A stretch of DNA of 64,000 bases from an uncultured Muribaculaceae bacterium (GCA_964619545.1 CAZUED010000003.1:163-64162), one strand, 5' to 3'; shown: positions 14,006 through 54,232, numbered from the stretch's first letter. The notes: generated from the sequence alone by a model not told the origin. Translations and numbers: made by a program.

Positions 14006-16300
14006 CTAAATTATTGGGGGAAAGCAATCACCGCCAGCTGCTGGACAGCAGTTGAATCCTTGGCTACCCATGTCTGTATAAACCTCGCCCGTGCAACAGC
14101 CGTTTAAGTCTGGCGATGTACCATCTTCGCAGGTCAGTGCCGTCGTGGTGGTGGTTGCGGGTGGTGTTTCTTTGGCAAATGGATTTTTTATTGTACCGTC
14201 CGCATTGTATTGCAGGCCCAAAACTTGCTCGTTATATTCTTTTGTTCCCTTAGTTAATTGCTGGCCATTGGTTCCGACAATACCGGTTTGCTGCTGGTTA
14301 TTCCAAATAGCCTGCTGTTGGGCATTATTTATCGCTTGATACTGAATTGCTTTACAATATGCAACAACGGTACGATAGTCATAGCCAGCCTCGGAAATAG
14401 TTTGTGCTGTTACACCCGCACTCAGCTGTCCATTAGTGCCGCAGTATTTCTGTATATCAAATCCGCGAACTTGTCCAACCCATGATGCATCATCATAATT
14501 TGGTATGGCTTCGGACGCTTTATGAGAAACATATTGCGAAGGAGTCAAATTGCAATTTTCAAGCCCATTCACCTTGTCGCAGAAGTTCACAATTAAATCC
14601 TTTGGCGAATAAACCGTTATGCGCGTACCAGCGGCAATAGAAAATGGAGGAACCGTGTTGTCCAGCATATCAACCATTAATTTTTGCGCAACTCTGTTCC
14701 ATGTTGAAATAATTTCATTTTTTGCCAGCTCGGACGAGCGAACTTGACCACTTTGTGTAACCGTATTGTTATCCAGATCAATTTGATTTACGAACTTGTC
14801 TGAAATTGGCGCAATCAAATTAACAGCGGCAGGCACAACTGCCGTTATCATCGGCATTATGAATTGCTCCATATAATCTGTGCTGCCGTGACCTGGAACG
14901 CCAACGCGACCTTGGCTGTCGCCAGCAAAGGGCTCGTCCCCGGCAAAGCTGAATTCAACTCCGTCCGGTCTAACAAAGCGATACCATTTGATTTGCATAC
15001 GACCGATGGCTTTATACGGACCCGGCATTTCACCAGTCAAATAACCCAACATCAATGTTCCGGTCGGAATTATTATAGTGCGTCCGTTATCAGAATAGAC
15101 ATGTCTATCAACTGTTGCCTGAACTGGCAACATGGATTGACGCTCTATCTTTGCATCTGCACGTATTTCATTTACGATTGTCGCAGGAATAGGCTTGTAC
15201 TGGCGCAGAACAAAAGTGCGGTCATAGGGCTCGGTCGATATAAATGCATCGCCCGCAGATGAAGGTACCAGGTTACTTTCTGGTTTATATGCAAATGCTG
15301 GATTTATCTCTGACAAACGTTTTGCACCACCCGCAGCTCTGGGTAATTCTGCCGCTGCTGCATTTACTTGTCTTGCTCGATTTTGTACGCGTGCGTTCGC
15401 CGGATTGGACAATACAGGAACATTCGCGCTTGATGCAATAAATCCGATTCGATCAAAGTCAGAGCCTATTTTTCTGCTGGGATTTTTAAGATCGGTAATA
15501 AATCCGGTATCCAAATTATATTCACCCAGTGGGCTGGTGCAGTCCAAGTCAGAAAAAGGATGAAAAAGATAATGTCCACCTTGGGGACGTATCCATCCGA
15601 TTTGCTTTCCATATGCGTCATAGCCGCCGAATGCAAATTCATAGCAGCGCTCGGTATTTAATGCTGCTGTAGTTACTGGCGCAGGCAAATTTTCTGTTGC
15701 AAATTTTGGCGCAAGGGTTTCGACCGCCTCGGCCACAGGATTAATTTCAGGGGCAGTCAAAACAGGTTCTGGTTCTGGCAATTGCACTGGTTTTTGTGGT
15801 TCTACTTTTTTTGTAGATAAAGCAACAGGAATTTCAGCAGTTTGTGCCATTTTGGCCTCGGCACTGGCGGGGTAATACTCAATAAGTACTTTAATGCCGG
15901 TTGGTTCCAAGTCTGCAGCAGGCGTCCAAGTTAATTCTGCACTGCAAGGAATGCCAAGTGTAATTTCGCCCATATTTGTACAGGTGGTATCTATGCTTAA
16001 TCCATCAATTTTTTGGGATAGTTTTACGCTGGGAATCATTGCGACTGCATTCGAAGAAATTTTAATAGTCTGTGTCTGTTTTTCGCCAACTGGAATGTTT
16101 TGCCATGCGATCTCAGATGGATCCATGGTCAGCTCCAGAACTGGTTTTGATTCGGACTTTGGTTTATCCTTGGAATCGCGACCCATCAGAATAACCAGCA
16201 AAACAACGACTACCAAAAAAGCAGCGAACATCACGATCCACAGCACATGCCGTGGCATGGACTTTTTTACATCGCTGATAGTGGTTGTTATCATCGCCAA
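14006..16300 (-). CDS. virB10: Type IV secretion protein VirB10/TrbI-like with a long C-terminal extension
   Basis: N-terminal TM segment, a Pro-rich region and a TrbI-type domain (...VDRHVYSDNGRTIIIPTGTLMLG...). This is followed by a Q/N-rich stretch, a TTTTT linker and a tail with 6 Cys. Confidence 0.88.
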   Translation of the reverse strand: MAMITTTISDVKKSMPRHVLWIVMFAAFLVVVVLLVILMGRDSKDKPKSESKPVLELTMDPSEIAWQNIPVGEKQTQTIKISSNAVAMIPSVKLSQKIDGLSIDTTCTNMGEITLGIPCSAELTWTPAADLEPTGIKVLIEYYPASAEAKMAQTAEIPVALSTKKVEPQKPVQLPEPEPVLTAPEINPVAEAVETLAPKFATENLPAPVTTAALNTERCYEFAFGGYDAYGKQIGWIRPQGGHYLFHPFSDLDCTSPLGEYNLDTGFITDLKNPSRKIGSDFDRIGFIASSANVPVLSNPANARVQNRARQVNAAAAELPRAAGGAKRLSEINPAFAYKPESNLVPSSAGDAFISTEPYDRTFVLRQYKPIPATIVNEIRADAKIERQSMLPVQATVDRHVYSDNGRTIIIPTGTLMLGYLTGEMPGPYKAIGRMQIKWYRFVRPDGVEFSFAGDEPFAGDSQGRVGVPGHGSTDYMEQFIMPMITAVVPAAVNLIAPISDKFVNQIDLDNNTVTQSGQVRSSELAKNEIISTWNRVAQKLMVDMLDNTVPPFSIAAGTRITVYSPKDLIVNFCDKVNGLENCNLTPSQYVSHKASEAIPNYDDASWVGQVRGFDIQKYCGTNGQLSAGVTAQTISEAGYDYRTVVAYCKAIQYQAINNAQQQAIWNNQQQTGIVGTNGQQLTKGTKEYNEQVLGLQYNADGTIKNPFAKETPPATTTTTALTCEDGTSPDLNGCCTGEVYTDMGSQGFNCCPAAGGDCFPPII

Positions 16301-16321
16301 CGCAGACTCCTGAGCCTTTTA

Positions 16322-17797
16322 TTATTGAACTCTTACTACATTGCAAGCGGTCCCTTGGAACTTTGTCATTTTATCACAAAGCTTTTGTGCGCTTTCAATG
16401 TCCGACATGGGCCCAATACGCAGGCGATAAAGCCGCGCGGTTGCAGCGCCCGTACCCAGATCTCCAACTCCAGACTCGTCAACTGCGAAATAAACCATAT
16501 TACGATAAGGATTCAGCAGTCCTTGTCCATCATCACCACTGAATTTCGCCAGCAGCTTTGTCCAATAATCATTCAGTGCTTTGACAGAAGTATCGGATTT
16601 CAGCTCAACAGCGACACCTGCTTGATTAGAGGTTATAATTGGAATGTCGCTTTGCGGCAGGAACGAGCCCGCAGTATTGCGAACACTTGGCAGCATATTA
16701 ACGCCAGTCGCACCAGTTGATGCGCCATTTGTCGGCATTACCATCGGCGGTTGAAATCCATTAACCTGTTGGTCAGTGATTGGCTGCAACATTGCACCAG
16801 AATCAACCGGCATATTTCCATAACCAACATTTTGCAAGGATTGTGATGATTGCATGCTTTGCATAACGTTAGATTCAGCCAGTGCCATGACGCTGGAAGT
16901 GTCAGCAATCAAGAAGGGTTTTGCGCGACGCTTGATACAAACAATTCGCTGACCACTGCGCAATACCATATCCCCAACTGCTTCTACAATCAACAGGCGT
17001 CCGTTTTCACCATCAGTACGAAAACCGACTGGCGATTCACCACCTTCGACCAAGATAGAAACAACTGGTCTTTGAGTCATTGCGATAACCTTGTCGCCAA
17101 AATCAATATAGGTAAAGATTCTGTCGCGCCATACGCGTTCAGGCGCAATTACAAAGTCATCAGGATTCGGGACAAAAATGTCTAAATCAAAGCGGAACTC
17201 TGACGGATCAATTTTCATTGTTTTTATCCAGCCGTAATCTTCGCCGTCAACGCCCAAGGTAGAAGTTGAATTTTTCTTTGGGAAAATAGAGTTCATACCA
17301 GAAGTTTGACCAGCAGAAGAGCTGGTTGCATTTGGTATGCTAGAACGCCCATCCAGAACAACATCAACCTGGGAATAAGAAATTTCGCTGGAATTAGCAG
17401 GTTCGGAACGCAGATAGAATAAATATTTATTTCCTGATTTGCCAGTAATAATCAAATTTGTGTCGCTGCCCTGATTTGTTGCAACCGGTGTCATATAAAT
17501 TGTTCTGCCACCTTTTTGCGGATCCATTTGGAACAAACCTTCGTTACCAATGACGCCATCTTCGATAATTTCGCCTTCGGGCAAATTTATCATGGTTACC
17601 ATTCCATTACGCAAACGAATCGGAAGAACTGCGCCTGGCGCCCATGTCAGTTGGGCAAAGCCAGGTTTAGAACTGCCTGTGGCCATATTTGCCTCTGGGT
17701 TATCCCACGCATCCTGGACACCATAATCTTCGGCACTTGCCCCGCCAATACAAAAGGCAAAAATCAAAGGGCAAAGAGCAAATAATTTTATATTCAT
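16322..17797 (-). CDS. virB9: Type IV secretion protein VirB9-like with a C-terminal SPOR-like extension
   Basis: Signal peptide, and N- and C-terminal domains similar to VirB9/TrbG. About 190 extra residues end in a putative SPOR fold. Confidence 0.82.
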   Translation of the reverse strand: MNIKLFALCPLIFAFCIGGASAEDYGVQDAWDNPEANMATGSSKPGFAQLTWAPGAVLPIRLRNGMVTMINLPEGEIIEDGVIGNEGLFQMDPQKGGRTIYMTPVATNQGSDTNLIITGKSGNKYLFYLRSEPANSSEISYSQVDVVLDGRSSIPNATSSSAGQTSGMNSIFPKKNSTSTLGVDGEDYGWIKTMKIDPSEFRFDLDIFVPNPDDFVIAPERVWRDRIFTYIDFGDKVIAMTQRPVVSILVEGGESPVGFRTDGENGRLLIVEAVGDMVLRSGQRIVCIKRRAKPFLIADTSSVMALAESNVMQSMQSSQSLQNVGYGNMPVDSGAMLQPITDQQVNGFQPPMVMPTNGASTGATGVNMLPSVRNTAGSFLPQSDIPIITSNQAGVAVELKSDTSVKALNDYWTKLLAKFSGDDGQGLLNPYRNMVYFAVDESGVGDLGTGAATARLYRLRIGPMSDIESAQKLCDKMTKFQGTACNVVRVQ

Positions 17798-17876
17798 TTC
17801 ACATCCTTCCTAATTTTTTTCTCAAGCGAATTCAGCTGTGACATTTGCCACTTGCCGTTTGCTATTTAAGTTTATG

Positions 17877-18530
17877 CTATTGCATAAAATCGAGCGGATC
17901 ACTTCCCCCTGATTCCACCCGGTATTCCGAGACTTGCAGCCCCAGCGGATTTTCCTGTCTGTTGCCCCATTTCAATTCTGGCGTGTAGGTCAATCCTATT
18001 ACAATAGTAAAATCTTTTGGCGGGGTATGTCCAGCGCTTTCTGATGTGCAAAACCATCTGAATTTTACAGCGAATTTATCACTTCCGCGTGGCTCAATTG
18101 CGGGCGATTGAAACTCTACAGGGCACGAAAACTGAACGTTCGGAGAATCCTGCATGAAAGCAGACCATAACTGAGTTGTTGCAAATCTGGCATAAACCTC
18201 TCTAGATGACCAGATATAAACTGGGCCGTCTGGGCTGCGCCACTTGTACCGCATGGTATTTACATTGGGTGTTATTTCGTTGCGCGCGCGAATATATTCC
18301 TTGATGAAGCTTTCCTTGTAATCGATCATAGTTTTGTTATTTACTGGCAGTTGTTGAATTTCGATTATTTGACCCTCGACACGGCGCGCATTCAGCAAGA
18401 AAACCTGGGTCCTATTCAATGGGAACATGTTAGAGACTGCGAAAATCATGGCCAAAGCAGTTGCAATTGCTGCGGCCAGCACGAAAGACATCATGCGCGC
18501 GGTAAAAGCATTGGGTGTGACAACTGCCAT
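17877..18530 (-). CDS. virB8: Type IV secretion protein VirB8-like
   Basis: N-terminal TM segment, a periplasmic domain and the NPLG motif (NPLGLQVSEYRV). Confidence 0.78.
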   Translation of the reverse strand: MAVVTPNAFTARMMSFVLAAAIATALAMIFAVSNMFPLNRTQVFLLNARRVEGQIIEIQQLPVNNKTMIDYKESFIKEYIRARNEITPNVNTMRYKWRSPDGPVYIWSSREVYARFATTQLWSAFMQDSPNVQFSCPVEFQSPAIEPRGSDKFAVKFRWFCTSESAGHTPPKDFTIVIGLTYTPELKWGNRQENPLGLQVSEYRVESGGSDPLDFMQ

Positions 18531-31344: not shown

Positions 31345-31920
31345 TTAATGTTCAAAGCCAAGTGCGTGTGCCAGCTCTTTTGCAAATAAAGTTCGATAAT
31401 TTACATAAAATGCAAGATTGTCTGCACTATCTTCGCGCGTGTAATCTGGTGAATACCAGTGACCCACTATTTTTACAATGCCATACCATTTACCGCGAAC
31501 TTTCATAAAGCCGTATGCATGACGGCTGTTTTTACTATCTTTCTCTTGAAAATAAAATTTTGATATATCTACGTCTCGCATACATTTCATTTTATTCCAA
31601 AGCGTTCGAACAGCAGAAAAATTTTTATCGTGATTAGTAACAGCAATAGATTCAATTTCCTTTGGATTCACACCAATCATGTTTGCCATTATTTTCTGAA
31701 AGTTTTTCCAACAAGCAGCATCATAGCAAATAGTTGTTTGTTTGCGCGCTTTGCCATGATACTTATATTCCCAAGCCCAACCATTCGCAATGGCTTTTTC
31801 AACAAGTTCGGTCATTTCATGTTGAGATATATTGGTAACGGCCATGGGATTTTGTATATTATATTCGCATTGATGTTTTTTTTGATTTTTTAACACAGGA
31901 ATAGTTATAGACTCACTCAT
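31345..31920 (-). CDS. Hypothetical protein (191 aa, ends ...ELAHALGFEH)
   Basis: ORF; no family recognised. Confidence 0.5.
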   Translation of the reverse strand: MSESITIPVLKNQKKHQCEYNIQNPMAVTNISQHEMTELVEKAIANGWAWEYKYHGKARKQTTICYDAACWKNFQKIMANMIGVNPKEIESIAVTNHDKNFSAVRTLWNKMKCMRDVDISKFYFQEKDSKNSRHAYGFMKVRGKWYGIVKIVGHWYSPDYTREDSADNLAFYVNYRTLFAKELAHALGFEH

Positions 31921-32053: not shown

Positions 32054-32308
32054 TTATTCAGCAACAACTGAAACTGTTTTACGATCGCGAACGCCACGTT
32101 TGAATTCTACGTGTCCGTTAACTTTCGCAAACAATGTGTGATCTTTGCCCATGCCGACATTTAATCCCGGATGAACAGTTGTTCCACGTTGTCTGACAAT
32201 AATGTTGCCAGCAATTACTTTCTGACCGCCGCCTTTTTTGACGCCCAACCGACGTCCGGCCGAGTCGCGTCCATTCGTAGATGCTGAACCTGCTTTCTTA
32301 TGTGCCAT
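32054..32308 (-). CDS. rpmA: 50S ribosomal protein L27
   Basis: [16 protein letters not shown]... Confidence 0.95.
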
Positions 32309-32342
32309 AATTTGCTCCTTTCAGTCGCAAATAGTCTATAGA

Positions 32343-32645
32343 CTATCCCTTGATTTCTGTTATCTTCAAGACCGTGATGTTTTGGCGGTGGCCTTTGGTT
32401 CTGCGATAGTTGTGACGACGTTTTTTCTTGAAAACCAAGATTTTGTCCGCACGTTCTTGCGCAATAACCTGGGCGGATACTTTCGCGCCTGAAACCAACG
32501 GATTTCCAATTTTATCGCCGACCATCAAAACCTGGTCAAAGTCAATTTTTTCATCAGCTTTCAGCTTTTCTACCTTTATGGTATCACCGGTTTTAACACG
32601 GTATTGCTTTCCACCGGTCTGAAATATTGCATAAATTTCTGCCAT
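32343..32645 (-). CDS. rplU: 50S ribosomal protein L21
   Basis: [17 protein letters not shown]... Confidence 0.95.
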
Positions 32646-33076
32646 ATTTTTACCCTTTTTTGCTCAGTTTGTAAAAAACTTTATGCAATAATAGCGTTTT
32701 TATAGCAAAAGTCAAGCTAAAATTCGTCGACTATAAAATTGTAAATATATTTTTTATTTATAGGTTTTAAGACAAAAATACCAATAATTTCGGTTATAAC
32801 AGATGGTCAAGGGCCATCGTATGTTTACTTATACATTTTTTGTGCAAAAAACTAACGAATCGCCAAAGGAAAAAATGCCCGAAAACGAGGCTATTCATAA
32901 AATCAAGCACCAAATACACATAATTGTAAAAAAAATTATCGCCCGGTACGCTAAAATACTATATCTTGTGTCTTAGAGGCTGGTTTGGCCACTACCTGTT
33001 GATTTTTTGTGATTCTGGGGAGGGCGCAAAAACAATAGTAAATATGTTTAAAAAGTAATATAAAGGGCCGATAATA

Positions 33077-34948
33077 ATGAACGAATCATTGAAACTTTTA
33101 TCCGATTTGGTTTATTACATGAAATACAGCCGGTATTTGCCAGATTTAAAGCGCCGTGAAACATGGAAAGAAACAGTTTTGCGTAATAAAGAAATGATGA
33201 TGGCTAAATATGCCCATATCCCCAATGTTTTTCCATATATTGATAAAGCTTTTGATCTTGTGTTGGAAAAAAAGATTTTGCCATCTGGCCGTTCTTTGCA
33301 ATTTGGTGGCGAAGGCATTCTGAAAAACAACAATAAAATTTATAATTGTTCTGCCATAGGGATTGATTCCATCAAGGCTTTTACTGATTTGATGTTTTTG
33401 TTGCTTTGTGGGTGTGGTGCTGGAATTTCTGTGCGTCATGTTTTCATAGATAAACTGCCATTATTGATACCAAAGTCTGGTAAAAAAGTAAAATTTAAAC
33501 CGGACGATTCTATCGAAGGTTGGGCGGATTGTTTGAACGAACTTTTGCATGCTTCGTTTGAAACCGGTGCGGATGTAGAGTTTGATTTTTCAGCTGTTCG
33601 GCCAAAGGGTGCATTAATTAGATCTTCGTTGTGCAGCGCACCAGGACCAGAGCCGTTGGCAGAAATGTTGAAAAACATCAAAACATTTATAGATAAAAAA
33701 ATTGCGGCCGAAGATTACAAAATGACATCGCTTGATTGCTTTGACATTTGTTGTTTGGCGGCCGATGCAGTTTTGTCTGGTGGAATTCGCCGTAGCGCAT
33801 TGATTACCCTGTTTGACAAGGATGATGAATTAATGCTGCATGCGAAAGAAGGTAAGTGGTGGGAAACTGCTCCTTGGCGTGGAAATTCTAATAACTCGGT
33901 TCAATTTGATCGTGCGACCACGACCAAGGAAGAGTTTGATAAGATTTTTGAACAATGCAAAAAATCCGAATGTGGCGAACCTGGATTCGTTTGGACCAAT
34001 AATCCAGAGTGGTGTGTGAATCCGTGCTGTGAAATTTCAATGCCCAGCCATGGTTTTTGCAATCTTTCATCTATAAATTTGGGCAGTGTTGAATCCCAGG
34101 AAGATTTTAATGATCGTGCTTATTGGTGTTCGGTCCTTGGGACTTTGCAGGCTGGATTTACAGATCTGAAATACATTGATTCTAAATGGAAAGAAACTGC
34201 CGAAGACATGTCTTTAATTGGCGTTTCCATAACTGGTATTGCATCTCATCCTGACATTACGCAACTCAGCTTTGAAGAAGCAGTATCGCATGTAAAAAAG
34301 GCAAATGAAGAAGTTGCAAAAATTTTGGGCATAAAACCGGCTGACAGATTAACCAATGTAAAGCCTGATGGAACTGGTGCACCAGTATTGGGAACCAGCA
34401 GCGGAATTCACAGCTGGCATGCAAAGCATTACTATCGTCGTATTCGCGTGAACAAGCTGGAGCCGATATATGAATACATGGTCAAAAATTTCCCAGACTT
34501 GGTAGAAGATGACAAGCGTAAATCCACAGACGGGGTTATAACTTTGGTTATTCGTGCACCCGAGGGAGCAGTTACTCGTCGTAATGAAACAGCCATAGAA
34601 TTTTTGGAACGTGTGAAGTATATTTTTGAACATTGGGTAAAGCCTGGACACATCCGCGGCGACAATTACAACAATGTTTCATGCACATGCAATGTAAAGA
34701 ATCACGAATGGGACGAGGTTCGCGAATGGATGTGGGAAAATCGTGAAAACTATACTGGAATTTCTTTATTGCCTTATTCGGATGCCAGTTATGAACAAGC
34801 CCCATTCGAAGATACTAATGAAGATGTATACAGAGAGTTTGCTGCAAAAAATTATAATTTCGAATTTGATAAGATAAAAGAAGAAAAAAATTGGGTGAAC
34901 TTTGGCGCAGCGATGGCATGTTCGGGCGGCGGATGCGAGGTTTTCTGA
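33077..34948 (+). CDS. nrdJ: Ribonucleotide reductase, class II-like (monomeric NrdJ type, presumed adenosylcobalamin-dependent)
   Basis: Thiyl-radical loop NPCCEI (N-x-C-x-E). Single 623-aa chain with no class I R2 partner. Confidence 0.8.
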   Translation: MNESLKLLSDLVYYMKYSRYLPDLKRRETWKETVLRNKEMMMAKYAHIPNVFPYIDKAFDLVLEKKILPSGRSLQFGGEGILKNNNKIYNCSAIGIDSIKAFTDLMFLLLCGCGAGISVRHVFIDKLPLLIPKSGKKVKFKPDDSIEGWADCLNELLHASFETGADVEFDFSAVRPKGALIRSSLCSAPGPEPLAEMLKNIKTFIDKKIAAEDYKMTSLDCFDICCLAADAVLSGGIRRSALITLFDKDDELMLHAKEGKWWETAPWRGNSNNSVQFDRATTTKEEFDKIFEQCKKSECGEPGFVWTNNPEWCVNPCCEISMPSHGFCNLSSINLGSVESQEDFNDRAYWCSVLGTLQAGFTDLKYIDSKWKETAEDMSLIGVSITGIASHPDITQLSFEEAVSHVKKANEEVAKILGIKPADRLTNVKPDGTGAPVLGTSSGIHSWHAKHYYRRIRVNKLEPIYEYMVKNFPDLVEDDKRKSTDGVITLVIRAPEGAVTRRNETAIEFLERVKYIFEHWVKPGHIRGDNYNNVSCTCNVKNHEWDEVREWMWENRENYTGISLLPYSDASYEQAPFEDTNEDVYREFAAKNYNFEFDKIKEEKNWVNFGAAMACSGGGCEVF

Positions 34949-34949
34949 T

Positions 34950-35405
34950 ATGAAGCTGAAAATCGTATTTGAATCTGAAAAAATCCGCGATGCATATCTG
35001 AATGGTCAGAAAAAATTCGCTTGGGCTAATGGGGATTCAGGAATTGATTTGCGCAGCGCAGAAGATGCATTTGATTTGCAGCCAGGGGAAAGAAAGTTGG
35101 TCAGTTCGGGGGTTCGAACTCAACTGATTGCGGAAAATGATTTGTGGGAGATTCAGCTTCGCCCAAGATCAGGAATGAATGCCAATGGTATTTATGTGGC
35201 ATTTGGAACGATAGATTATTCTTATACTGGTGTTATCGGGGCTGTGATGACGAATCAAACTTTACAGCCAGTCAGGGTCGAGTTTGGTGATCGTATCGCG
35301 CAAATCGTGGTATGTCCAATAGCAAAGCCAGAAATAGAATTTGTTGAAAACTTGAATAAAACAGACAGAAGCGGCAATGGATTTGGGTCAACAGGGATAA
35401 AATGA
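34950..35405 (+). CDS. dut: dUTP diphosphatase
   Basis: Start at MKLKIV, immediately after the nrdJ stop. dUTPase motifs (GDSGIDL, RSG, GTIDYSYTG). Confidence 0.88.
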   Translation: MKLKIVFESEKIRDAYLNGQKKFAWANGDSGIDLRSAEDAFDLQPGERKLVSSGVRTQLIAENDLWEIQLRPRSGMNANGIYVAFGTIDYSYTGVIGAVMTNQTLQPVRVEFGDRIAQIVVCPIAKPEIEFVENLNKTDRSGNGFGSTGIK

Positions 35406-35432
35406 ACCATTAAAAAAATTAAAGGGTTTGTC

Positions 35433-35975
35433 ATGGCACAAATTACAACCAAGAAAGGTGATTACGGAATGACTCAGCTGAATCCAGACAGGATTGCCAG
35501 CAAGACTCATCCTGTGATTGAAATTATGGGGTCCGTGGACGAGCTTTCATGCGCCCTGGGATTGTGTGATGACAAGTATGATGGTATACAGACCTTTTTG
35601 TCGGAAATGATGGGATACCTGTATTATAAAACGATTGATGAAAGACGTGTTGCGCAACAGATTTGGCAACTGGAAGATTATATTACGACTCACAATAATT
35701 CTATACCTCCGTTTTTTGTAAATCCACGTGGCTATGTCAGCTTGGCGCGCGCAATATGCCGTCGCGCAGAAAGACGTGTTGTGGAATTTATGGAGGCCGA
35801 GCGTAATGCATCCCTGGAAGAAAGATATGGATTGAATTTGCAGCCTATCCAGCAATACCTGAACAGATTGAGTGATTATCTGTTTGTAAAAAGCTTTGAA
35901 CGTGTCGTTGCTGAACCCAGCCTGTTCCAAGATGAGCTGGCGACAAATCCACAAGTATTTGCAGCTGTTGCATAA
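35433..35975 (+). CDS. ATP:cob(I)alamin adenosyltransferase, PduO type
   Basis: N-terminus TKKGDYGMTQL...IEIMGSVDELS matches the PduO/MMAB consensus. Confidence 0.82.
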   Translation: MAQITTKKGDYGMTQLNPDRIASKTHPVIEIMGSVDELSCALGLCDDKYDGIQTFLSEMMGYLYYKTIDERRVAQQIWQLEDYITTHNNSIPPFFVNPRGYVSLARAICRRAERRVVEFMEAERNASLEERYGLNLQPIQQYLNRLSDYLFVKSFERVVAEPSLFQDELATNPQVFAAVA

Positions 35976-36000
35976 AAAATCCGCCAATTTGGCGGATTTT

Positions 36001-36117
36001 TTATTCTGTTGGATAATTTCGTGGGAACTGGTCACCACCTGGGTGTTTCAGGTTGGATTTTACACCACAACCACCCAGCACAATAACCAGCATTAAAAAT
36101 AAAATTACTTTCTTCAT
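36001..36117 (-). CDS. Putative small lipoprotein (38 aa, MKKVILFLMLVIVLGGCG...)
   Basis: Not in the track (<60 aa). Lipobox LGGC; the stop abuts a bidirectional terminator. Confidence 0.35.
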   Translation of the reverse strand: MKKVILFLMLVIVLGGCGVKSNLKHPGGDQFPRNYPTE

Positions 36118-36164
36118 ATCCCGATTATACATTAGAAAAGTGAAAAATAAACAAAAAATGTCAC

Positions 36165-36193
36165 TTGCACGGCATTCGCAATTAAGTTATTAT
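36165..36193 (+). promoter_or_regulatory. Sigma70-like promoter
   Basis: TTGCAC, 17-nt spacer, TATTAT. Confidence 0.45.
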
Positions 36194-36237
36194 TCGCATG
36201 CTATAACAGATTATCAAATTATAAAAAAGGAAGGAAA

Positions 36238-36744
36238 ATGAGATTTGGAAAAGTTCTTATTGGATTGGGCTTTGCGGTTATTACTCAGGGCGCAATCGCC
36301 GGACAAAATATTGAAATTTATTATTCGCCATCATGCCCCCATTGTCACCATGCAATGGAGTTTATTGATAAAACTTTGAGCGTGCAGTACAAAGATTTGC
36401 AGGTCAACAAGGTAAATGTTGTCGAACAAAAAAATCGTGATGCATTCATGAATGTTTTGAAAAAATGTGAATACAAATCTGGTGGTGTTCCAGTGATGGT
36501 CGTAAATGGTAAATGCTTCCAAGGTTATGCCGAATTCATGAATACAGAAATAATGCAGGCAATGGGCCCGGCCGATGTTGCTAGTGATAAAGCTGTCGCA
36601 ACAGAAAAATCTGAATCTGTTGCCCAGCTTCCGCCCGAACAAATACAGCCGGCAGACAAGGGAACATCAACAATGCTTTATGTTTTGCTGGGTTTGTTGG
36701 TAGCAGCGCTGGGCGTAGTATTGTTCGTTAAGAAGAAAAAATAA
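36238..36744 (+). CDS. Exported glutaredoxin-fold protein (CPHC) with a C-terminal TM anchor
   Basis: Signal peptide, a Grx-like fold (CPHC ... GGVPVMVVNGKCFQGY) and a C-terminal hydrophobic helix ending in KKKK. Confidence 0.65.
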   Translation: MRFGKVLIGLGFAVITQGAIAGQNIEIYYSPSCPHCHHAMEFIDKTLSVQYKDLQVNKVNVVEQKNRDAFMNVLKKCEYKSGGVPVMVVNGKCFQGYAEFMNTEIMQAMGPADVASDKAVATEKSESVAQLPPEQIQPADKGTSTMLYVLLGLLVAALGVVLFVKKKK

Positions 36745-36806: not shown

Positions 36807-37562
36807 ATGTTTGACTTAACTACTCTTGATTATATTTACATAGGATTGTTGTTGGTATCGACAATTTGGGCGTCGATTCGCGGTGGTGTGTATGAAACTG
36901 TGGCGACGATTTCTTGGATTGTTGCGGCATTGGCGGCGCGTTTTATATCACCCTTACTGGATGGATTGCTGCAAGGCTGGTTCAATCTGAATGAATCTAC
37001 GATTGGAACATTGGTTACTTCGTATTTTATCGTCTTTTTTGTAATTTTGGTCATATTTGGGCTGTTTAATCAAAAGCTGCGTGACCGCGTGCAAGATAGT
37101 ATGCTGAATGTAACCGACCATGCATTTGGAATTATTTTCGGCATTATTCGCGGTATAGCGGTAATGGGTTTGGTTTATTGGGTTTTACTTTGGTATTATT
37201 CAGACACAAAATTGCCTTCTTATATTACGACTTCGCGGACGCGACCAGTTATGCAGCTGACTACAAAGAAAATACATGACTGGTTTATCCCGGGTGACAA
37301 TAAATTATTAGAACGTGATATACAGGGCGAGCAAGAGGCACAAAAGATATATGAAAATCTGATAAATCCAGCAGTAAGCCCAAAAACCACATCACAACAA
37401 AATGCACAAACATCCAATGAAAAACCTGTGAAAGCTGAACCAGTTGCCAATACCACGAATGCTTCTGCTGAAATAAATTTGGATAAACCTGCCGAGGTTG
37501 GATATAAGGATTCCGAGCGCCAAGCCCTGGATAACCAGTTAATCCAAATTGAATCAAAGTAA
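36807..37562 (+). CDS. cvpA: CvpA-family membrane protein
   Basis: Four TM helices in a CvpA-like layout, followed by a hydrophilic tail. Confidence 0.75.
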   Translation: MFDLTTLDYIYIGLLLVSTIWASIRGGVYETVATISWIVAALAARFISPLLDGLLQGWFNLNESTIGTLVTSYFIVFFVILVIFGLFNQKLRDRVQDSMLNVTDHAFGIIFGIIRGIAVMGLVYWVLLWYYSDTKLPSYITTSRTRPVMQLTTKKIHDWFIPGDNKLLERDIQGEQEAQKIYENLINPAVSPKTTSQQNAQTSNEKPVKAEPVANTTNASAEINLDKPAEVGYKDSERQALDNQLIQIESK

Positions 37563-38355: not shown

Positions 38356-39048
38356 ATGAAAATAACGTCTTTATTTGATGTTCTTTCGCAGATTGGTAAA
38401 CCTGATTCAGGAAATCAAGATTATTTTTTTGCAAAACAAAGCTTTAATAGTTTCGACAGTTTTATAGTCGTAGGTGTTGGTCATAAATCAAGAATTTCCA
38501 ACATAGATAATTTCCGTACTTTTGATAATTATGTTTTAGATCATTTATATAAGTTTAACTTGGATTCATACGAATTAGTCGAAGAAATAGAAAAACATAA
38601 AATACATAAAAGAAGCATTTGTAAATCGCCAGAGAAAGAAGATACGTATTTCATGGGTGCGATAGAGGTTAAGGCTTTTAAGCAGCATCTTGAGATGGGA
38701 AATGGATTGTTAAGAAAATTCCCACAGATAGATAAAAAAATCATTCCTAATGGAATTGGTAAAAAATTTCATTTTTTTACGGATTTCCCAACTGATGATT
38801 ATTTAAGCGAAATGCCGTTCTTCCCAGGAATTGGGAAGGGTACTTTTGCATATTTTCAACCAGAAAACAAAGAAGAGTTACTTAATCAAATGCGCAATCT
38901 GGATGAATGGGTAGGGCGAAAGAAATCCATAACAGAAGAAGAGTTTGCATACGTAAAAAATTATAAAGAGTATTTGAATAAACGTGGCAAGAATTTACAA
39001 CAAAATGTAAATATGCCGGGAATGTTGGATGGACGTAGGGAAAAGTAA
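38356..39048 (+). CDS. Hypothetical protein, very AT-rich, lying between two tRNA genes
   Basis: 230-aa ORF rich in K, N, F and D, with no recognisable family. Confidence 0.5.
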   Translation: MKITSLFDVLSQIGKPDSGNQDYFFAKQSFNSFDSFIVVGVGHKSRISNIDNFRTFDNYVLDHLYKFNLDSYELVEEIEKHKIHKRSICKSPEKEDTYFMGAIEVKAFKQHLEMGNGLLRKFPQIDKKIIPNGIGKKFHFFTDFPTDDYLSEMPFFPGIGKGTFAYFQPENKEELLNQMRNLDEWVGRKKSITEEEFAYVKNYKEYLNKRGKNLQQNVNMPGMLDGRREK

Positions 39049-45582: not shown

Positions 45583-46275
45583 GTGAGCGTCATGGATTTT
45601 CCGGCAGATTATGATACAAAGATGTTTCCGGAAACACGCTACCTTGGGATGGCGCGGGCTTTTGCGATTTGGTCCGCGATTTTGTTTTTATTAATTGCTG
45701 GACTTTCTTGGGCATTGGTTTGGACGATGCGTGCCAGCAGGGTAGAACCTGTTTTGGTTTCAATTTCTGCCGATGGTGCAACTTGGACGGCAGTATTGGA
45801 CGGAACAGGTCGCTTAAATTATTCTGTATCGCGCGCAATGCAAGAGGCAACAGTCGGAAAATTCACAAAACTTTGGTTCAGTATTTCGCGTGATGCAAAA
45901 GAAAATGAATCTAACTGGTGTCAATGCGAACAAACAAAATGTTGGGATGACGATGCGGCTGCGCCGCAGTGCAAAGTTTGTTGCGCTTCGGGCACCAGTT
46001 TATTTTCTAATTTCTTACAAGTTGTGAATGGTGACTTTCGTGAGCGGGCCGCGGCCGGCGAAGAATGGTCGATTGTTTCTGATTCGATTCGTGCAACACC
46101 TGTGGGTGAAATCTCTGACAATGGTGGATTATGGCGTGTTACTGCCAGTGTGAAAATGGGCGCGGGTCGGACGCAAAAGATAGAGGCGTTTGCACGTATC
46201 ATCAAAGCATCCGAAGGCTATCCATCAACAATGGGTTATTATGTCGCAGATTTTCATGCATATCCCGGGGAATAA
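45583..46275 (+). CDS. Hypothetical membrane-anchored periplasmic protein
   Basis: Single N-terminal TM segment and a ~180-aa exported domain with a Cys cluster (WCQCEQTKCW...CKVCC). Confidence 0.55.
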   Translation: MSVMDFPADYDTKMFPETRYLGMARAFAIWSAILFLLIAGLSWALVWTMRASRVEPVLVSISADGATWTAVLDGTGRLNYSVSRAMQEATVGKFTKLWFSISRDAKENESNWCQCEQTKCWDDDAAAPQCKVCCASGTSLFSNFLQVVNGDFRERAAAGEEWSIVSDSIRATPVGEISDNGGLWRVTASVKMGAGRTQKIEAFARIIKASEGYPSTMGYYVADFHAYPGE

Positions 46276-48819: not shown

Positions 48820-49656
48820 TTAAATCCTAAACTCGGTTTTTGCCTGGACGGGACGCAAAGTTTGACCAAGTGGACGAACCGGGGCTGCGTTCAGGTCCAG
48901 CGCCCCAGCAATCGCGTCCAGACCGTCATCGTGCCCCGAATCGCCCATCGGCGTCCAACCCAGCATTTCAGACAGCAATGGAGTCGCCTGAATTCTTTGG
49001 TGGGCCCAAATACGACCCGTCGTCAGTAGTGGCTCTACCGCGTTCAGAATCCGAGATTCCTTGCGCGTGTGATTTATGATTTTTTGGATAACAACAGATT
49101 GGTCGTGTTTTTTTGCGACTTCGCGCAAAATCTCGGGCAAGGCGTTTCCCAGCCCATTTACTTCTATCCCGATTATATGCGCGCCATGTATTTTCATAAA
49201 TCCCAAAACTTTCTCGCACTGAGTCGCCAGTGGATGCAAATCATTGTCATCCACAATCAAGTACCGAACATCATGAATAAATGCGCGCCGATTTTTATCG
49301 TCTCGGTAAAGCAAGACACATACACTGGAATCGGCCCCTTTACGCCCGCCTGATGGATCCCAATAGCACGATACGCCCGTTATCAAAAATTCTTTATCAA
49401 TTCCCAGTTTCGCTGTGCGAGCATCAAACTCTCCGTCATAAAAATAAAGCGCGCCTGGATCCAGCCGCGCTTTATCTTCCGAAATATATTCCAGCATCAT
49501 TTGACTGGAAAAATGACGTGGTCCGACCGTTTCCCTTAATTCTTCTATTTTTTCCAGTGGAAAAATATCTGGCCATGCAGGTATGCCGCCAGAATCAATT
49601 ATCGGTAGGCGGAATAATTGGTATCCGCGTAAAAATGGCAAGGTCTGTTCATTCAT
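48820..49656 (-). CDS. Phage terminase large subunit, C-terminal nuclease-domain fragment
   Basis: RNaseH-like nuclease motifs (CYWDPSGG..D...VLLY..D...RAFIHDV.YLIVDD, GHDDGLDA). Confidence 0.6.
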   Translation of the reverse strand: MNEQTLPFLRGYQLFRLPIIDSGGIPAWPDIFPLEKIEELRETVGPRHFSSQMMLEYISEDKARLDPGALYFYDGEFDARTAKLGIDKEFLITGVSCYWDPSGGRKGADSSVCVLLYRDDKNRRAFIHDVRYLIVDDNDLHPLATQCEKVLGFMKIHGAHIIGIEVNGLGNALPEILREVAKKHDQSVVIQKIINHTRKESRILNAVEPLLTTGRIWAHQRIQATPLLSEMLGWTPMGDSGHDDGLDAIAGALDLNAAPVRPLGQTLRPVQAKTEFRI

Positions 49657-49726
49657 GGGAAAATAAAAAAAACGCGCTATGCGCGTCTGTTTGATGCCTC
49701 AATTATATCAAATTTTTCATAAAAAA

Positions 49727-51268
49727 TCAATCTAAAAATGGAACGTCAGCCATATCAGGCACTTCGGCATTACCATTGCTTGCGCTAGCAGGTGCAGAAT
49801 AAGATGGTTCTTCCGATTGATAACCTTCATCCAAATCATCAAACAAAGAATATTCCCCACTGAATTTCAGTTTAATCGTTTCTGGTTTTCCATGACGATT
49901 TTTACCGATAATCAATTCGGCCTTACCGCGTGATGCGTCCAGACGCTTGCGCCAATTGTCTGCCTTGTTGGTTGTAAATTTTTCGGAATGGTCACCGACA
50001 ACATCAGATGGATCGCGACCCTGCAAGTAATACTCTTCACGATAAGTGAACATAACAATGTCGGCATCTTGTTCAATAGACCCAGATTCGCGCAAGTCCG
50101 ACAGCAATGGTCGTTTGTCATCGCGTGATTCGACTGCGCGGGAAAGCTGAGACAGCGCGATAACCGGCGCATCCAATTCCTTGGCCAACATTTTCAGACC
50201 CCGGGTGATTTCTGATAATTCATTAACACGGCTGTCGTTTTTACGAAGAGTTGGTGACTGCATCAACTGCAAATAATCGATAACGATAAGTGCAATACCG
50301 CCATGCTTACGGGCAATACGGCGTGCGCGTGCGCGCATCATAGGGACACTCATCCCCGGGGTATCATCAACCAGCAAAGGAACATTAGATAGTGCATCAG
50401 AATACTGCGACATCCGCAGAAACTCTTGATCATTCAGGCTGCCGTTACGCATAGAACTGGATGGAATTTTCGCCTGGGACGACAGAACGCGAGCCGCCAG
50501 TTGAGATGCTGACATTTCAAGGCTGAAAAACACGACCGCGCCACGATACTTTTTATTTGCGCGATTTGCCATAATTGCGCTGGCCGCGTTAAAGGCAATA
50601 TTCATCGCAACCGTGGTCTTTCCCATAGCAGGACGACCAGCAATTATTACCAAATCAGACTTGTGCAATCCGCTGATAGATTTATCCAAATCACGCAGAC
50701 CTGTGGTCAGACCCGATAATTTTCCATCGGCCTTATAAGCAATTTCGGCTTCTTCTAATGCAACGCGAAGTGCCGCCCCCAGTGGAGATGCCCCGCGGTC
50801 GGACGATCCGGTGGTGGATAAATCAAACAGTTTTTGTTCGGCTATTTCTATTTGTCTGTCTACCGGATTGTCTAAATCTTCGACAAATGCCGAATCGGTA
50901 ATGTTTTGACCTATATTAATCAGGTGACGCCGCAAAGCATTATCATAAACTATTTTGGCATAGCTTTCTATATTTACAACAGATGCGCCGGCACTCGCCA
51001 GTTCTGACAAATACTCGACCCCGCCGACAGAATCAAGAACACCTTGTTGTGTCAGATAGTTTTTTGCCGTAATGATGTCAAATGGGATTCCGGCGGCGAA
51101 TTGCTTTTCGGCAAGTTTAAAAATCTCTTGGTGGGCGGGATGAGTAAAATGTTCAGAGTGTAAAAAATCGCTGACTTTTTCCAGTGCGCGGTTGTTCATC
51201 AAGACTGCTGCCAGCACGGCTTGCTCAGCTTCCAAATTAGTCGGTAAAGACTTGGGAGTAAAATCCAT
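49727..51268 (-). CDS. dnaB: Replicative DNA helicase DnaB
   Basis: N-terminal domain (LEAEQAVLAAVLMN) and Walker A (AGRPAMGKTT). No intein. Confidence 0.95.
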   Translation of the reverse strand: MDFTPKSLPTNLEAEQAVLAAVLMNNRALEKVSDFLHSEHFTHPAHQEIFKLAEKQFAAGIPFDIITAKNYLTQQGVLDSVGGVEYLSELASAGASVVNIESYAKIVYDNALRRHLINIGQNITDSAFVEDLDNPVDRQIEIAEQKLFDLSTTGSSDRGASPLGAALRVALEEAEIAYKADGKLSGLTTGLRDLDKSISGLHKSDLVIIAGRPAMGKTTVAMNIAFNAASAIMANRANKKYRGAVVFFSLEMSASQLAARVLSSQAKIPSSSMRNGSLNDQEFLRMSQYSDALSNVPLLVDDTPGMSVPMMRARARRIARKHGGIALIVIDYLQLMQSPTLRKNDSRVNELSEITRGLKMLAKELDAPVIALSQLSRAVESRDDKRPLLSDLRESGSIEQDADIVMFTYREEYYLQGRDPSDVVGDHSEKFTTNKADNWRKRLDASRGKAELIIGKNRHGKPETIKLKFSGEYSLFDDLDEGYQSEEPSYSAPASASNGNAEVPDMADVPFLD

Positions 51269-51371
51269 GTCTCAAACCATACAACACGAATTTTAATTTG
51301 CAATGATTTTTCTTGCTTTGTTATAAAAAAAAAACTACTCTGTTTGTCAATAAGAACAAGAGGATTCAGTC

Positions 51372-52388
51372 ATGGCATGGGAAGAAATCTGTTTTCCAAA
51401 TAACCTTAGAAATATAAGGTTGTCGCGCGGAATGCGTATGACCGAAGTCGCCAAAAAATCCGGCCTTTCGCTGTCAGCAATGTCCAAGGTTGAAAAGGGG
51501 GTGCGCCGGTTAAAACAAAGTCAACTGATGCAGCTTTGCACAATTCTGGACTGCAAGTTGGCCGACATCTTTATAAAGGCTGACGATGAAAAGGCTACCA
51601 AATGGCAATCTGAAATGCAACGTCGCTTGACTGAAAATGAAACCGCTGGTTTGAAGGTATTTGGTGCGGGGATACGGGTTTTACGCCGTGAAGTTGGTAA
51701 GACTATCGCCCAGGCGGCCCATGATGCTAAGATGACGCTAAGCGTATATCACAAGATAGAAACTGGCCAGCGAGAGGTTTATGAAAACGAAATAGAAAAT
51801 TTGGCAAAGGCAATGGGTAAATCGATTGATGAAATGTTCAAGGCAATCGCAGGACTTTATAATTCTGGTGCGCTGAACAGACAAATCGACAAGGCCGAAG
51901 AACGTGTTCGCGAAGCGCTGAAAGTTGGTAAGTCCGAATCTAATTTAGATATGGGCAGCGCGATTTATGGCGCAACGGTTTATGATTCTGTGCGGAAAAA
52001 TTTGGTTCCGGTATATGGAACCGCGAATGGAAAAAATATAGTATTTATGAAATCTGATGACAATATGCTGCCACCATTGCCAAAGATAAAAAGCGGCAGT
52101 GGGATATATGCTGTTCAGGCACCTGCTGGTCGGTTGGGACCGCTGTTTCCGCACAAATCACATTTGCTTGCAAATCCTGGTATAATGCCTGTGGCTGGTG
52201 ATTTAGCGGTTTTGTTTGATGATGATTACGAAAATATCGAGCCTCGTACCCAGGCGACCGCACGGATTGTCATGCTGAAAGAGGATAAAAATGGCACGCT
52301 AATCGGTGTTCAGTCTTATCCAGAAGAGAAAATACAGATAAAGAACGGCAAAAAGCGACTGCATAAAATTGTGCAGATTGTCTGTTAA
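51372..52388 (+). CDS. XRE-family regulator with two HTH domains and an S24/LexA-like C-terminal domain (phage-repressor-like)
   Basis: Two HTH_XRE segments. The C-terminal beta-rich domain resembles the CI/LexA C-terminal domain, but no clear Ser-Lys dyad was found. Confidence 0.65.
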   Translation: MAWEEICFPNNLRNIRLSRGMRMTEVAKKSGLSLSAMSKVEKGVRRLKQSQLMQLCTILDCKLADIFIKADDEKATKWQSEMQRRLTENETAGLKVFGAGIRVLRREVGKTIAQAAHDAKMTLSVYHKIETGQREVYENEIENLAKAMGKSIDEMFKAIAGLYNSGALNRQIDKAEERVREALKVGKSESNLDMGSAIYGATVYDSVRKNLVPVYGTANGKNIVFMKSDDNMLPPLPKIKSGSGIYAVQAPAGRLGPLFPHKSHLLANPGIMPVAGDLAVLFDDDYENIEPRTQATARIVMLKEDKNGTLIGVQSYPEEKIQIKNGKKRLHKIVQIVC

Positions 52389-52411
52389 TAATTTGTAAAA
52401 TAGAGAGAGAA

Positions 52412-53047
52412 ATGAGAGAACTGACTTCCATAATAGCGCAGCGCTTGTTGAACTTGTATCGCCAGGCTCATGTGATTGATGGCGGCTGGGCAGCTGTTAA
52501 TAAGGCATTGTTGGCCGAGGCAGATAATGAAGTTCTGGCCGATTTGCAAAAATTGCCGAACGGGGGAAAGTTGGTTCAGCATATAAAAAATTTGCAATCT
52601 GGAAAAACGGAAGTCAGCGGAATAGAACGCGAAGTTATACCATATGGTGGTAAGATGGACAGCGCGGTAAAGGCAACGCAAATTTCCAACAAGGATTTGA
52701 AAGAGTTAGAATCTGCGCTGGCAGAATTTCAATCAGACGAAGAACATATTGAAAAAATTAAAAATTTATCATTTGTTCAATCTTTTGGTGAAAAGTGGAT
52801 TTCCGGGGTTCGGTCATCATTATCTGGCAAGCCAGAGTTAGAGAAAAAATGGCTTGAAGTTTCCAGATCCGCACGGGCATATGATTTATGGAATAAAGCC
52901 TATGCCGTTTTAATTCCGCCAGTTTCGGACAGAGCACGTGCCGAGATTCAGGCAGAATTATCTGAATATGAAACTTATCTGCCGATGTTTGGCGAAGACG
53001 GAACGCAACTTTTATCGCGACTCCGCTCATTTGTAAGCAGTTTGTAA
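52412..53047 (+). CDS. Hypothetical protein
   Basis: ORF followed by a terminator at 53048-53075. Confidence 0.5.
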   Translation: MRELTSIIAQRLLNLYRQAHVIDGGWAAVNKALLAEADNEVLADLQKLPNGGKLVQHIKNLQSGKTEVSGIEREVIPYGGKMDSAVKATQISNKDLKELESALAEFQSDEEHIEKIKNLSFVQSFGEKWISGVRSSLSGKPELEKKWLEVSRSARAYDLWNKAYAVLIPPVSDRARAEIQAELSEYETYLPMFGEDGTQLLSRLRSFVSSL

Positions 53048-53074
53048 AAAAAACGCGGTGGTTCCCCGCGTTTT

Positions 53075-53731
53075 TTAATTTTCAACCTTATAAATTGTGT
53101 CAACTGCATGTGGTGTGCCGATATAAATCATGGTGCCGCTAGGGGAAAGAATAAAGTCCAGTTCCCGCAGACGCATGCGTAACATTTCTCGTTTTTGAGA
53201 AGTATTGCTGGTGTTGGGAACTTCCACGTCATCGCAGATAATCATATCGGCGCGCTGACCTGTTATATTTCCATGAATACCTTGGCAGACTACAGAAGGT
53301 TCCCGAATTCCAACTTGGCGCGAGATTGTAATTTTATGCATTCCCCATTCTTTTTTAACGTTTGGCAATAAATCTCGGCATTCTGGATGATTTTCCAGAA
53401 TATGTTTTATATGTGACACCATTCTTGATGCCAGATTGGATTCTGCAGAAAGAATAAGTATACGTGTTTGTGGTCTTATAGAAAGTACCCATGCGGCGAA
53501 AATGCCAACAACTGATGATTTTCCTGAATGTCTAAATGCCAATAAAAGCGCCCGACGGGGCGGATTTTCAAGGCTGTTTACCAGAAATCTCAAAATGTTT
53601 TTATGATGTGTTGGTGTTTCCATTCCCAGTATCTGGTTCCATGCATCTAAAAAATTTTTCGCGGATTCATAAAGTTCCATAATCATCAATACTTTCACTG
53701 GGGCCTGTATCTGCCGGGGTTCCATAATCAT
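53075..53731 (-). CDS. Phage terminase large subunit, N-terminal ATPase-domain fragment
   Basis: Walker A-like RHSGKSS, Walker B IICDDVE and the coupling motif IGTP. The fragment ends right after the ATPase domain. Confidence 0.65.
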   Translation of the reverse strand: MIMEPRQIQAPVKVLMIMELYESAKNFLDAWNQILGMETPTHHKNILRFLVNSLENPPRRALLLAFRHSGKSSVVGIFAAWVLSIRPQTRILILSAESNLASRMVSHIKHILENHPECRDLLPNVKKEWGMHKITISRQVGIREPSVVCQGIHGNITGQRADMIICDDVEVPNTSNTSQKREMLRMRLRELDFILSPSGTMIYIGTPHAVDTIYKVEN

Positions 53732-54215: not shown

Positions 54216-54232
54216 TTTATAACCTTTGTTTG

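Follow-up and report, generated by a model that had tools for sequence, protein, structure and literature searches.

The 64-kb stretch of DNA considered here (GCA_964619545.1 CAZUED010000003.1:163-64162, deposited as an uncultured Muribaculaceae bacterium and referred to below as the window) carries on one strand a class II ribonucleotide reductase (RNR) gene, nrdJ, followed by genes for a dUTPase (dut), a PduO-type adenosyltransferase (pduO) and, further downstream, an exported glutaredoxin-like (Grx-like) protein (Table 1). Open reading frames (ORFs) were called mechanically, and families were assigned with Pfam and NCBIfam profiles. An initial annotation had placed four ORFs at these positions, the first encoding a 623-residue class II RNR with an NPCCEI motif, and both the ORF calls and the profiles confirm it. 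nrdJ and dut are nearly contiguous: the junction reads TTC TGA T ATG, with the stop codon at 34946-34948, a single T at 34949 and the dut ATG starting at 34950, and this ATG is preceded at 9 nt by GAGG, a Shine-Dalgarno-like motif inside nrdJ. The tight coupling first read from this junction holds. The same 1-nt spacing is repeated in the related loci L006 and L008-L010. Together, nrdJ, dut and pduO are a working three-gene operon. On the upstream side, the operon is flanked by rpoB-rpoC (rpoC ends at 30551) and, between rpoC and nrdJ, by rpmA and rplU on the minus strand (32054-32645); the intergenic region upstream of nrdJ spans 431 bp. Downstream are cvpA (36807-37562), frr and two tRNAs.

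Table 1. Features of the nrdJ region and of the phage-like cluster, in window coordinates.
Feature	Position	Strand	Description
nrdJ	33077-34948	+	623 aa; putative monomeric adenosylcobalamin-dependent ribonucleotide (probably triphosphate) reductase, RTPR/NrdJm type
dut	34950-35405	+	151 aa; homotrimeric-type dUTPase
pduO	35433-35975	+	180 aa; PduO-type ATP:cob(I)alamin adenosyltransferase
Grx-like gene	36238-36744	+	168 aa; neighbour outside the module; predicted exported, C-terminally membrane-anchored thioredoxin-fold CPHC protein
NrdR box 1 (predicted)	32956-32971	+	ATACTATATCTTGTGT
NrdR box 2 (predicted)	32989-33004	+	CCACTACCTGTTGATT; 17 bp after box 1
Major capsid	57189-58004	-	phage-like cluster
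Capsid-assembly protein	58877-59575	-	phage-like cluster
Tail tube	56315-56842	-	phage-like cluster
Tail protein	54591-56315	-	phage-like cluster
Possible endolysin	59738-60190	-	phage-like cluster

NrdJ matches the families Ribonuc_red_lgC, RNR_Alpha and RNR-II_ins_dom. Its top NCBIfam model is TIGR02505 (RTPR, 233.4 bits), and TIGR02504, which describes the dimeric NrdJ, gives 42 bits. For the insertion domain that mimics a dimer partner (PF21995, RNR-II_ins_dom), the score of 26.6 bits is slightly below the cutoff of 27. The sole sequence match in the PDB is 1L1L, the RTPR of Lactobacillus leichmannii (E = 6e-28). In this alignment, N315-P316-C317-C318-E319 of the NPCCEI thiyl loop (residues 315-320) pairs with N406-P407-C408-G409-E410, C328 with C419, and C615/C620 with C731/C736; C91 would be the equivalent of C119, a pair that lies outside the alignment. 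N315, P316, C317, E319, C328, C615, C620 and C91 are invariant across 67 homologues. An AlphaFold (AF2) model built on the homologue alignment (pLDDT 90, pTM 0.90) ranks 1L1L at the top of a Foldseek search (E = 1e-33, TMq 0.79), with dimeric NrdJ enzymes as runners-up (TMq 0.51-0.55; Thermotoga maritima ~0.54). The profile, 1L1L and fold matches, together with what is known of the characterised monomeric enzymes, are the reason for treating NrdJ as RTPR-type: by sequence and model, it appears to be specifically of the monomeric RTPR/NrdJm type, not the common dimeric NrdJ. Its subfamily is divergent and shared with phage enzymes. Neither NrdJ nor the rest of its clade contains any ATP-cone. 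An ATP-cone-like segment directly upstream of the reductase, or fused to it, is seen in the most distant NrdJm homologues borne by metagenome-assembled genomes (MAGs), which are Lentisphaerae, Blastocatellia and Chloracidobacterium bins (L082 5647-5970, L083 1356-1688, L085 5644-6018).

With the L. leichmannii/delbrueckii RTPR, the window protein shares the layout of a single-chain, adenosylcobalamin (AdoCbl)-dependent reductase, the N-P-C-x-E loop, the active-site cysteine pair and the C-terminal CxxxxC, but it is ~115 residues shorter (623 vs. 739) and, as a divergent member, does not reach the TIGR02505 equivalog cutoff of 340. The dimeric NrdJ of T. maritima has in common with it AdoCbl dependence, independence of oxygen, a ten-stranded barrel and thiyl-radical chemistry. 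However, the dimeric enzymes take ribonucleoside diphosphates (NDPs) and have their specificity site at the dimer interface, whereas the window NrdJ matches the insertion domain. The two NrdJm enzymes that have been characterised biochemically, those of L. leichmannii and Thermus virus P74-26, are monomeric reductases of ribonucleoside triphosphates (NTPs) that are re-reduced by thioredoxin and thioredoxin reductase; the viral enzyme is B12-dependent and is served by the host's thioredoxin pair (PMC6459318). By analogy with these two, NrdJ is most likely a monomeric, AdoCbl-dependent NTP reductase, and the preference for NTPs over NDPs is an extrapolation because identity to the L. leichmannii RTPR is only ~21%. 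This distance, the small number of characterised enzymes (two, both very distant) and the score under the equivalog cutoff give some room to an NDP reductase resembling the dimeric NrdJ, in which case the linkage to dut would be ordinary pyrimidine housekeeping instead of detoxification of a direct product. Such an activity is improbable, as fold and sequence are clearly nearer to RTPR than to the dimeric enzymes and the two characterised monomeric enzymes, although distant from each other, both take NTPs.

A search of 5.8 billion proteins separates the homologues of NrdJ into two tiers. The first (65-93% identity) comes from MAGs whose labels read Rickettsiales, Alphaproteobacteria or Proteobacteria bacterium; the second, set off by a gap, is very large and lies at ~47-50% identity. 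Among the GTDB species-representative genomes, 35 species-level MAGs carry a clade-type nrdJ. They come from termite, mouse and other animal guts, with some co-assemblies mislabelled 'Muribaculaceae', and include one closed chromosome of 716 kb. Their NrdJ proteins are 65-96% identical and form a monophyletic group in a neighbour-joining (NJ) tree (100/100 bootstraps). The organism belongs to this uncultured clade of gut and termite-gut alphaproteobacteria with small genomes, in which nrdJ-pduO is universal, and the initial remark that a class II enzyme is unusual for Rickettsiales thereby becomes moot. The clade may be the order Rs-D84 (Ca. Enterousia), whose gut-dwelling alphaproteobacteria with reduced genomes reportedly lack nucleotide biosynthesis (PMC12306168).

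In all 35 clade loci pduO lies downstream of nrdJ, either directly or with one small gene in between. The commonest arrangement is a divergent trxB followed by nrdJ-pduO-serS, and trxB is found upstream in most relatives. The order seen in the window (rpoC, then rpmA-rplU, then nrdJ-dut-pduO-grx-cvpA-frr) is present in full in L008-L010, in L006 except for rpoC, and from rpoC to pduO in the short contig L007. What had been regarded as a non-canonical spot is simply the gene order of the lineage, common to its nearest relatives. The GC content of the four genes is 0.40-0.44 (window 0.42), and their GC content, third-position GC content (GC3) and codon usage all lie inside the range set by core genes such as rpoB, rpoC, bamA and dnaX; the codon-usage distance of nrdJ (0.08) is comparable to those of rpoB and rpoC. 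Relative to L006, dN/dS is lowest for pduO (0.036) and nrdJ (0.04), followed by the Grx-like gene (0.09) and dut (0.13). These low values indicate strong purifying selection on working genes, not pseudogenes. Vertical inheritance of nrdJ-pduO within the clade is clear.

The second gene of the operon is a variable component. Dut is recognised by PF00692 (75.7 bits, cutoff 22) and contains the segments DSGIDL, RPRSG, GTIDYSYTG, DRIAQ and RSGNGFGSTG, which we take to be the five dUTPase motifs. Outside the window's subclade, dut fills the slot between nrdJ and pduO only in L023; in most relatives the slot is empty. Against phage genomes, Dut finds no close relative (≤40% identity), which is uninformative about its origin. 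Three relatives have an unrelated ORF of 71-116 residues in the slot (L016 7961-8275, L020 7915-8130, L030 3697-4047), presumably similar to the four-helix-bundle family of '23S rRNA intervening sequence' proteins. PduO matches PF01923 (Cob_adeno_trans) at 101.4 bits (cutoff 24), with residues 4-152 aligned to positions 1-166 of the 171-position profile, and TKKGDYGMT near its N-terminus is presumably the ATP-binding motif.

The proposed path from PduO through AdoCbl to NrdJ is strengthened by the linkage of the two genes in 35/35 relatives, by its recurrence in spirochaete MAGs (L039, L044, L047) and by a published pairing: Lactobacillus delbrueckii, a B12 auxotroph, activates salvaged cobalamin for its RTPR with an nrdJ-cbrS-cbrT-pduO cluster (PMC5997447). 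In all three spirochaete loci, an RTPR-type nrdJ is directly followed by pduO (L047 5971-8462), the encoded PduO being 26-29% identical to that of the window. The context in L047 is clearly cellular (CorA, an OpuA-type ABC transporter, AcrB), and the spirochaete nrdJm-pduO pair is an independent instance of the linkage. Like the window, the L. delbrueckii cluster groups a reductase gene with a gene for a PduO-type adenosyltransferase. It differs in that the window has no ECF-CbrT genes between nrdJ and pduO, where dut or, in most relatives, nothing is found. The host is also of another phylum, being a Gram-negative alphaproteobacterium, with a tandem NrdR operator upstream of the operon and a short, phage-like RTPR.

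This predicted operator (32956-33004) lies upstream of nrdJ, with both boxes inside the intergenic region. Box 1 agrees with the NrdR consensus at 14/16 positions, including 6/6 key positions; box 2 retains 5/6 of these, with C replacing A at position 8. The highly conserved positions of NrdR boxes are C4, A6, A8, T9, T11 and G13 (PMC13584703), and functional boxes are separated by 14-17 bp (PMC12051234), so the spacer in the window is within range. As in the operators of Streptomyces coelicolor nrdRJ and of Escherichia coli nrdAB, nrdHIEF and nrdDG, the two 16-bp boxes are partial palindromes spaced by about three turns of the helix, and they lie directly upstream of an RNR operon with their key positions conserved. 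The clade differs in its spacer, mostly 17 bp vs. the predominant 15-16 bp, and the window also in the substitution in box 2. The tandem pair is the only one in the window when both strands are searched. Box 1 is nearly invariant upstream of nrdJ in 34/35 related loci, and a strict pair search finds tandem boxes in 30 of the 35, with a spacer of 17 bp in 26 and of 15-16 bp in the other 4. No tandem pair occurs upstream of viral or other nrdJ homologues (0 of ~129 loci).

In one termite-gut member of the clade (L014 2740-5718), a class III RNR operon, nrdDG, sits between trxB and nrdJ. Its nrdD has an N-terminal ATP-cone and a PF13597 match of 595 bits, and nrdG encodes the radical-SAM activase. 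This operon is preceded by its own pair of NrdR boxes of the same consensus type, with a 16-bp spacer, and so independently validates the motif as the predicted NrdR operator of the clade. A further relative (L028) also carries nrdG; some members of the clade are thus equipped with two oxygen-independent RNRs. The initial annotation had pointed to a B12 riboswitch (RF00174) as a possible control element upstream of nrdJ. The whole window gives no cobalamin riboswitch match at the Rfam gathering score, and none appears at E-values up to 10 in 32550-33150; the NrdR boxes were found in the intergenic region instead. As judged from these motifs, the nrdJ operon is under NrdR-type, host-like control and not under that of a B12 riboswitch. 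A potC RNA match at 32621-32694 on the plus strand (26.6 bits vs. a gathering score of 44, E = 0.005), which overlaps the beginning of the oppositely oriented rplU, is sub-threshold and probably due to chance.

These data also bear on the history of the operon, which had initially been regarded as a horizontally acquired, possibly phage-derived, B12-dependent island. Three observations speak for a recent arrival of this kind. RTPR is far commoner in viruses (~22%) than in cells (2-3%) (PMC10547690), outside the clade the nearest homologues (45-49% identity) belong to phage isolates and IMG/VR contigs, and T7-like phage structural genes are present elsewhere in the window. Nevertheless, a recently landed island at a non-canonical site is very improbable. 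NrdJ groups with the homologues of close relatives, the very outcome named in the initial annotation as contradicting an island, and the operon is present in every one of the 35 species-level relatives. Local synteny is common to L006-L010. The comparison of GC content, GC3 and codon usage, suggested as a check for foreign origin, places all four genes inside the core-gene range. In addition, the operator is of the host type and is absent upstream of viral homologues, PduO is practically absent from phage genomes (9 weak records among 50,697) and no IMG/VR sequence is more than 50% identical to a clade NrdJ. Of the phage-derived origin, a family tie to phages stands and recent acquisition does not.

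The family tie itself is extensive. Homologues of NrdJ occur in 1207 phage records and in at least 600 IMG/VR contigs, none of the latter above 49% identity, and the nearest relatives outside the clade, at 45-49%, are mostly viral. Cultured phages with an NrdJ at 44-45% identity include Microcystis Mel-JY01, Oceanospirillum PD0307 and Vibrio VPs20; more distant phage-isolate relatives are ~32% identical. In a 189-kb contig of the second tier, the homologue is found alongside gp32, RecA/UvsX, DnaB and Pol III alpha. Among phage enzymes of this class (marine virioplankton RTPR, P74-26 NrdJm, Pseudomonas phage JG054 rtpR, Puniceispirillum phage HMO-2011), the ~620-residue architecture is the same as in the window and every catalytic residue is invariant. 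In contrast, the phage genes are placed among gp32, UvsX/RecA, DnaB and polymerase genes and have neither an adjoining pduO nor NrdR pairs, whereas the window nrdJ lies on a chromosome, is found throughout the clade and has the regulation of a host RNR.

The deeper placement was taken from an NJ tree of 160 sequences with 100 bootstraps. The clade forms a single long stem (0.28 substitutions per site) that is sister to, and not nested inside, a star-like radiation of 119 sequences, most of them viral (79 IMG/VR, 2 phage isolates, 1 phage-like contig, 37 MAG-binned), which also includes the truly cellular spirochaete genes. The backbone branches are very short (0.006-0.036). An ancient phage link of nrdJ is plausible, with transfer in either direction. 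One version of it holds that the clade ancestor captured a viral RTPR that replaced or supplemented its RNR, and that the gene later came under NrdR control and was linked with a pduO of cellular origin. The long stem beside a radiation rich in viral sequences fits this scenario, and the relatives further out are again phage isolates. PduO has no close relatives outside the clade, its identity falling from 56-90% within the clade to ≤41% beyond, and it is not phage-borne, which fits separate origins of nrdJ and pduO. Yet the clade is sister to the viral radiation, the short backbone comes from NJ only, the sister group holds cellular spirochaete genes with adjoining pduO, and transfer from cell to phage or from another bacterium is equally compatible with the tree. 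Ancient capture from a virus is thus best held tentatively, as a real possibility that falls short of being likely. It is rather doubtful that, on top of this, an order-level clade runs its DNA precursor synthesis on a phage-captured, NrdR-domesticated NTP reductase tied to a dedicated B12-activating enzyme, possibly as the sole RNR in the window's lineage. If it were so, the bacteria would depend obligately on the cobamides of their neighbours and would convert imported ribonucleoside triphosphates into deoxyribonucleoside triphosphates (dNTPs) in one step.

Taken together, the region is, with good confidence, a vertically inherited, NrdR-repressed nrdJ-dut-pduO operon for oxygen-free dNTP supply in a small-genome gut alphaproteobacterium. 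In the proposed mechanism, PduO would use ATP to adenosylate salvaged, reduced cobalamin to AdoCbl, a role suggested by its family. With this cofactor, the RTPR-type NrdJ would form its thiyl radical at Cys317, in the NPCCEI finger loop, and reduce ribonucleotides, most likely NTPs. Thioredoxin and thioredoxin reductase, acting via the C-terminal Cys615/Cys620 pair, would then re-reduce the disulfide formed between Cys91 and Cys328. Provided that the enzyme accepts UTP, it would yield dUTP directly, which would explain the coupling of dut: the dUTPase would convert dUTP to dUMP and pyrophosphate, feeding thymidylate synthesis and keeping uracil out of DNA. At high dNTP levels, NrdR, a repressor that senses dATP/ATP, would shut off the operon by binding to its two boxes.

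Several observations weigh against this reading, in addition to the divergence of NrdJ and its extrapolated substrate class. Dut falls slightly under the NCBIfam equivalog cutoffs (NF001862, 100.4 vs. 103; TIGR00576, 100.2 vs. 102.55), and the divergent PduO stays below the equivalog-domain cutoff of TIGR00636 (PduO_Nterm, 76.5 vs. 108 bits). Consensus scans for promoters and terminators give as many matches as shuffled sequence and are uninformative; the promoter was not located. trxA, trxB, a cobalamin transporter and thymidylate synthase are all missing from the window and the fetched flanks. A regular expression for the Zn-ribbon of NrdR is negative in the window and in 171 fetched loci, which represent a small part of each genome. 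Finally, the nrdDG operon of L014 means that NrdJ cannot be claimed as the sole RNR throughout the clade. In the Pfam annotation of the ~45 ORFs of the window, nrdAB, btuB, btuF and cobalamin salvage genes are likewise absent.

The operon reveals neither a new enzyme class nor a new type of regulation, and the nrdJ-pduO cluster is already known in Lactobacillus. Its value lies in pinning down how uncultured gut and termite-gut alphaproteobacteria with very small genomes would make dNTPs without oxygen. These bacteria are predicted to have an absolute need for cobamides, which can guide attempts at cultivation and the study of cross-feeding in the gut. Furthermore, marine viromes are dominated by RTPR genes, and the operon offers a cellular point of comparison for rooting and reading this viral marker gene.

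The Grx-like protein encoded downstream had been counted as a member of the same module. Its match to PF00462 (23.8 bits) is barely over the cutoff of 22.9, and the NCBIfam Grx models remain far below theirs. Reading the protein from its N-terminus, a Sec-type signal peptide (MRFGKVLIGLGFAVITQGAIA, cleaved before GQ) is followed by the thioredoxin-fold domain, a disordered linker and a C-terminal transmembrane helix that ends in KKKK. CPHC, a second cysteine pair (C77/C93) and the cis-Pro GGVP are invariant in the family, which thus has four invariant cysteines and comprises only 59 clusters, all from related alphaproteobacterial MAGs. The structural model shows a minimal Grx/Trx fold without the DsbA insertion. 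Judging from these features and the model, the protein is most plausibly a thiol-disulfide oxidoreductase tethered to the membrane in the periplasm, where it could not serve a cytoplasmic RNR. The gene is a separate transcription unit outside the dNTP module: 262 nt separate it from pduO, and among the relatives it is present only in L006 and L008-L010. The LPXTG 'cell-wall anchor' label that several sources give to the protein was rejected, because the protein has no LPXTG motif, only a hydrophobic helix and a basic tail, and because the host is Gram-negative (BamA, LpxD and OmpH are encoded in the window).

A thioredoxin/glutaredoxin fold with a CxxC motif, encoded on the same strand a short distance after pduO, might nevertheless suggest that this protein is the physiological hydrogen donor of NrdJ, similar to NrdH, in a four-gene dNTP module. 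This is hardly credible given the signal peptide, the membrane anchor with its KKKK tail and the second invariant cysteine pair, all of which point to the periplasm. CPHC is the motif of DsbA. Moreover, the gene is confined to the four closest relatives although nrdJ-pduO is universal, and the redox neighbour of nrdJ in most relatives is trxB. With DsbA and other periplasmic thioredoxin-fold oxidoreductases, the Grx-like protein shares export, the fold, CPHC and the cis-Pro loop. It differs from DsbA in lacking the helical insertion (PF01323, 17 bits vs. a cutoff of 25.6) and in having the C-terminal tether, the extra cysteine pair and a very restricted family.

Elsewhere in the window, a cluster of T7-like phage structural genes occupies 48820-60190 on the minus strand (Table 1). 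The large terminase is split into an ORF for the N-terminal ATPase (53075-53731) and one for the C-terminal nuclease (48820-49656), ~3.4 kb apart, with dnaB (49727-51268), a double helix-turn-helix regulator (51372-52388) and an unknown ORF between them. The cluster may be what is left of a prophage, or an element that has been domesticated. It also includes a lysine/alanine-rich ORF (58312-58800, minus strand) that matches PF07382, the histone H1-like nucleoprotein HC2, at 81 bits, a match for which low-complexity sequence may be responsible. Genes for type IV secretion lie at 14006-18530 and encode a VirB10/TrbI-like protein of 764 residues, VirB8 and a VirB9/CagX-like protein that includes a SPOR domain; another ORF, with a weak resemblance to VirB8, is at 45583-46275. 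Large ORFs without a Pfam match flank these genes (11791-13998, and also 451-2439 and 2461-4704). Two smaller ORFs are found near the nrdJ operon, orf191 (31345-31920, minus strand) between rpoC and rpmA and orf230 (38356-39048, plus strand) between tRNA-Ala and tRNA-His. Neither has a Pfam, NCBIfam or PHROG match, and their GC contents are low (0.35 and 0.32, respectively, vs. 0.42 for the window). orf191 has no tblastn match in any fetched locus, L007-L010 covering the interval, and orf230 is shared with L006. Both are more plausible as recent acquisitions than the nrdJ operon.

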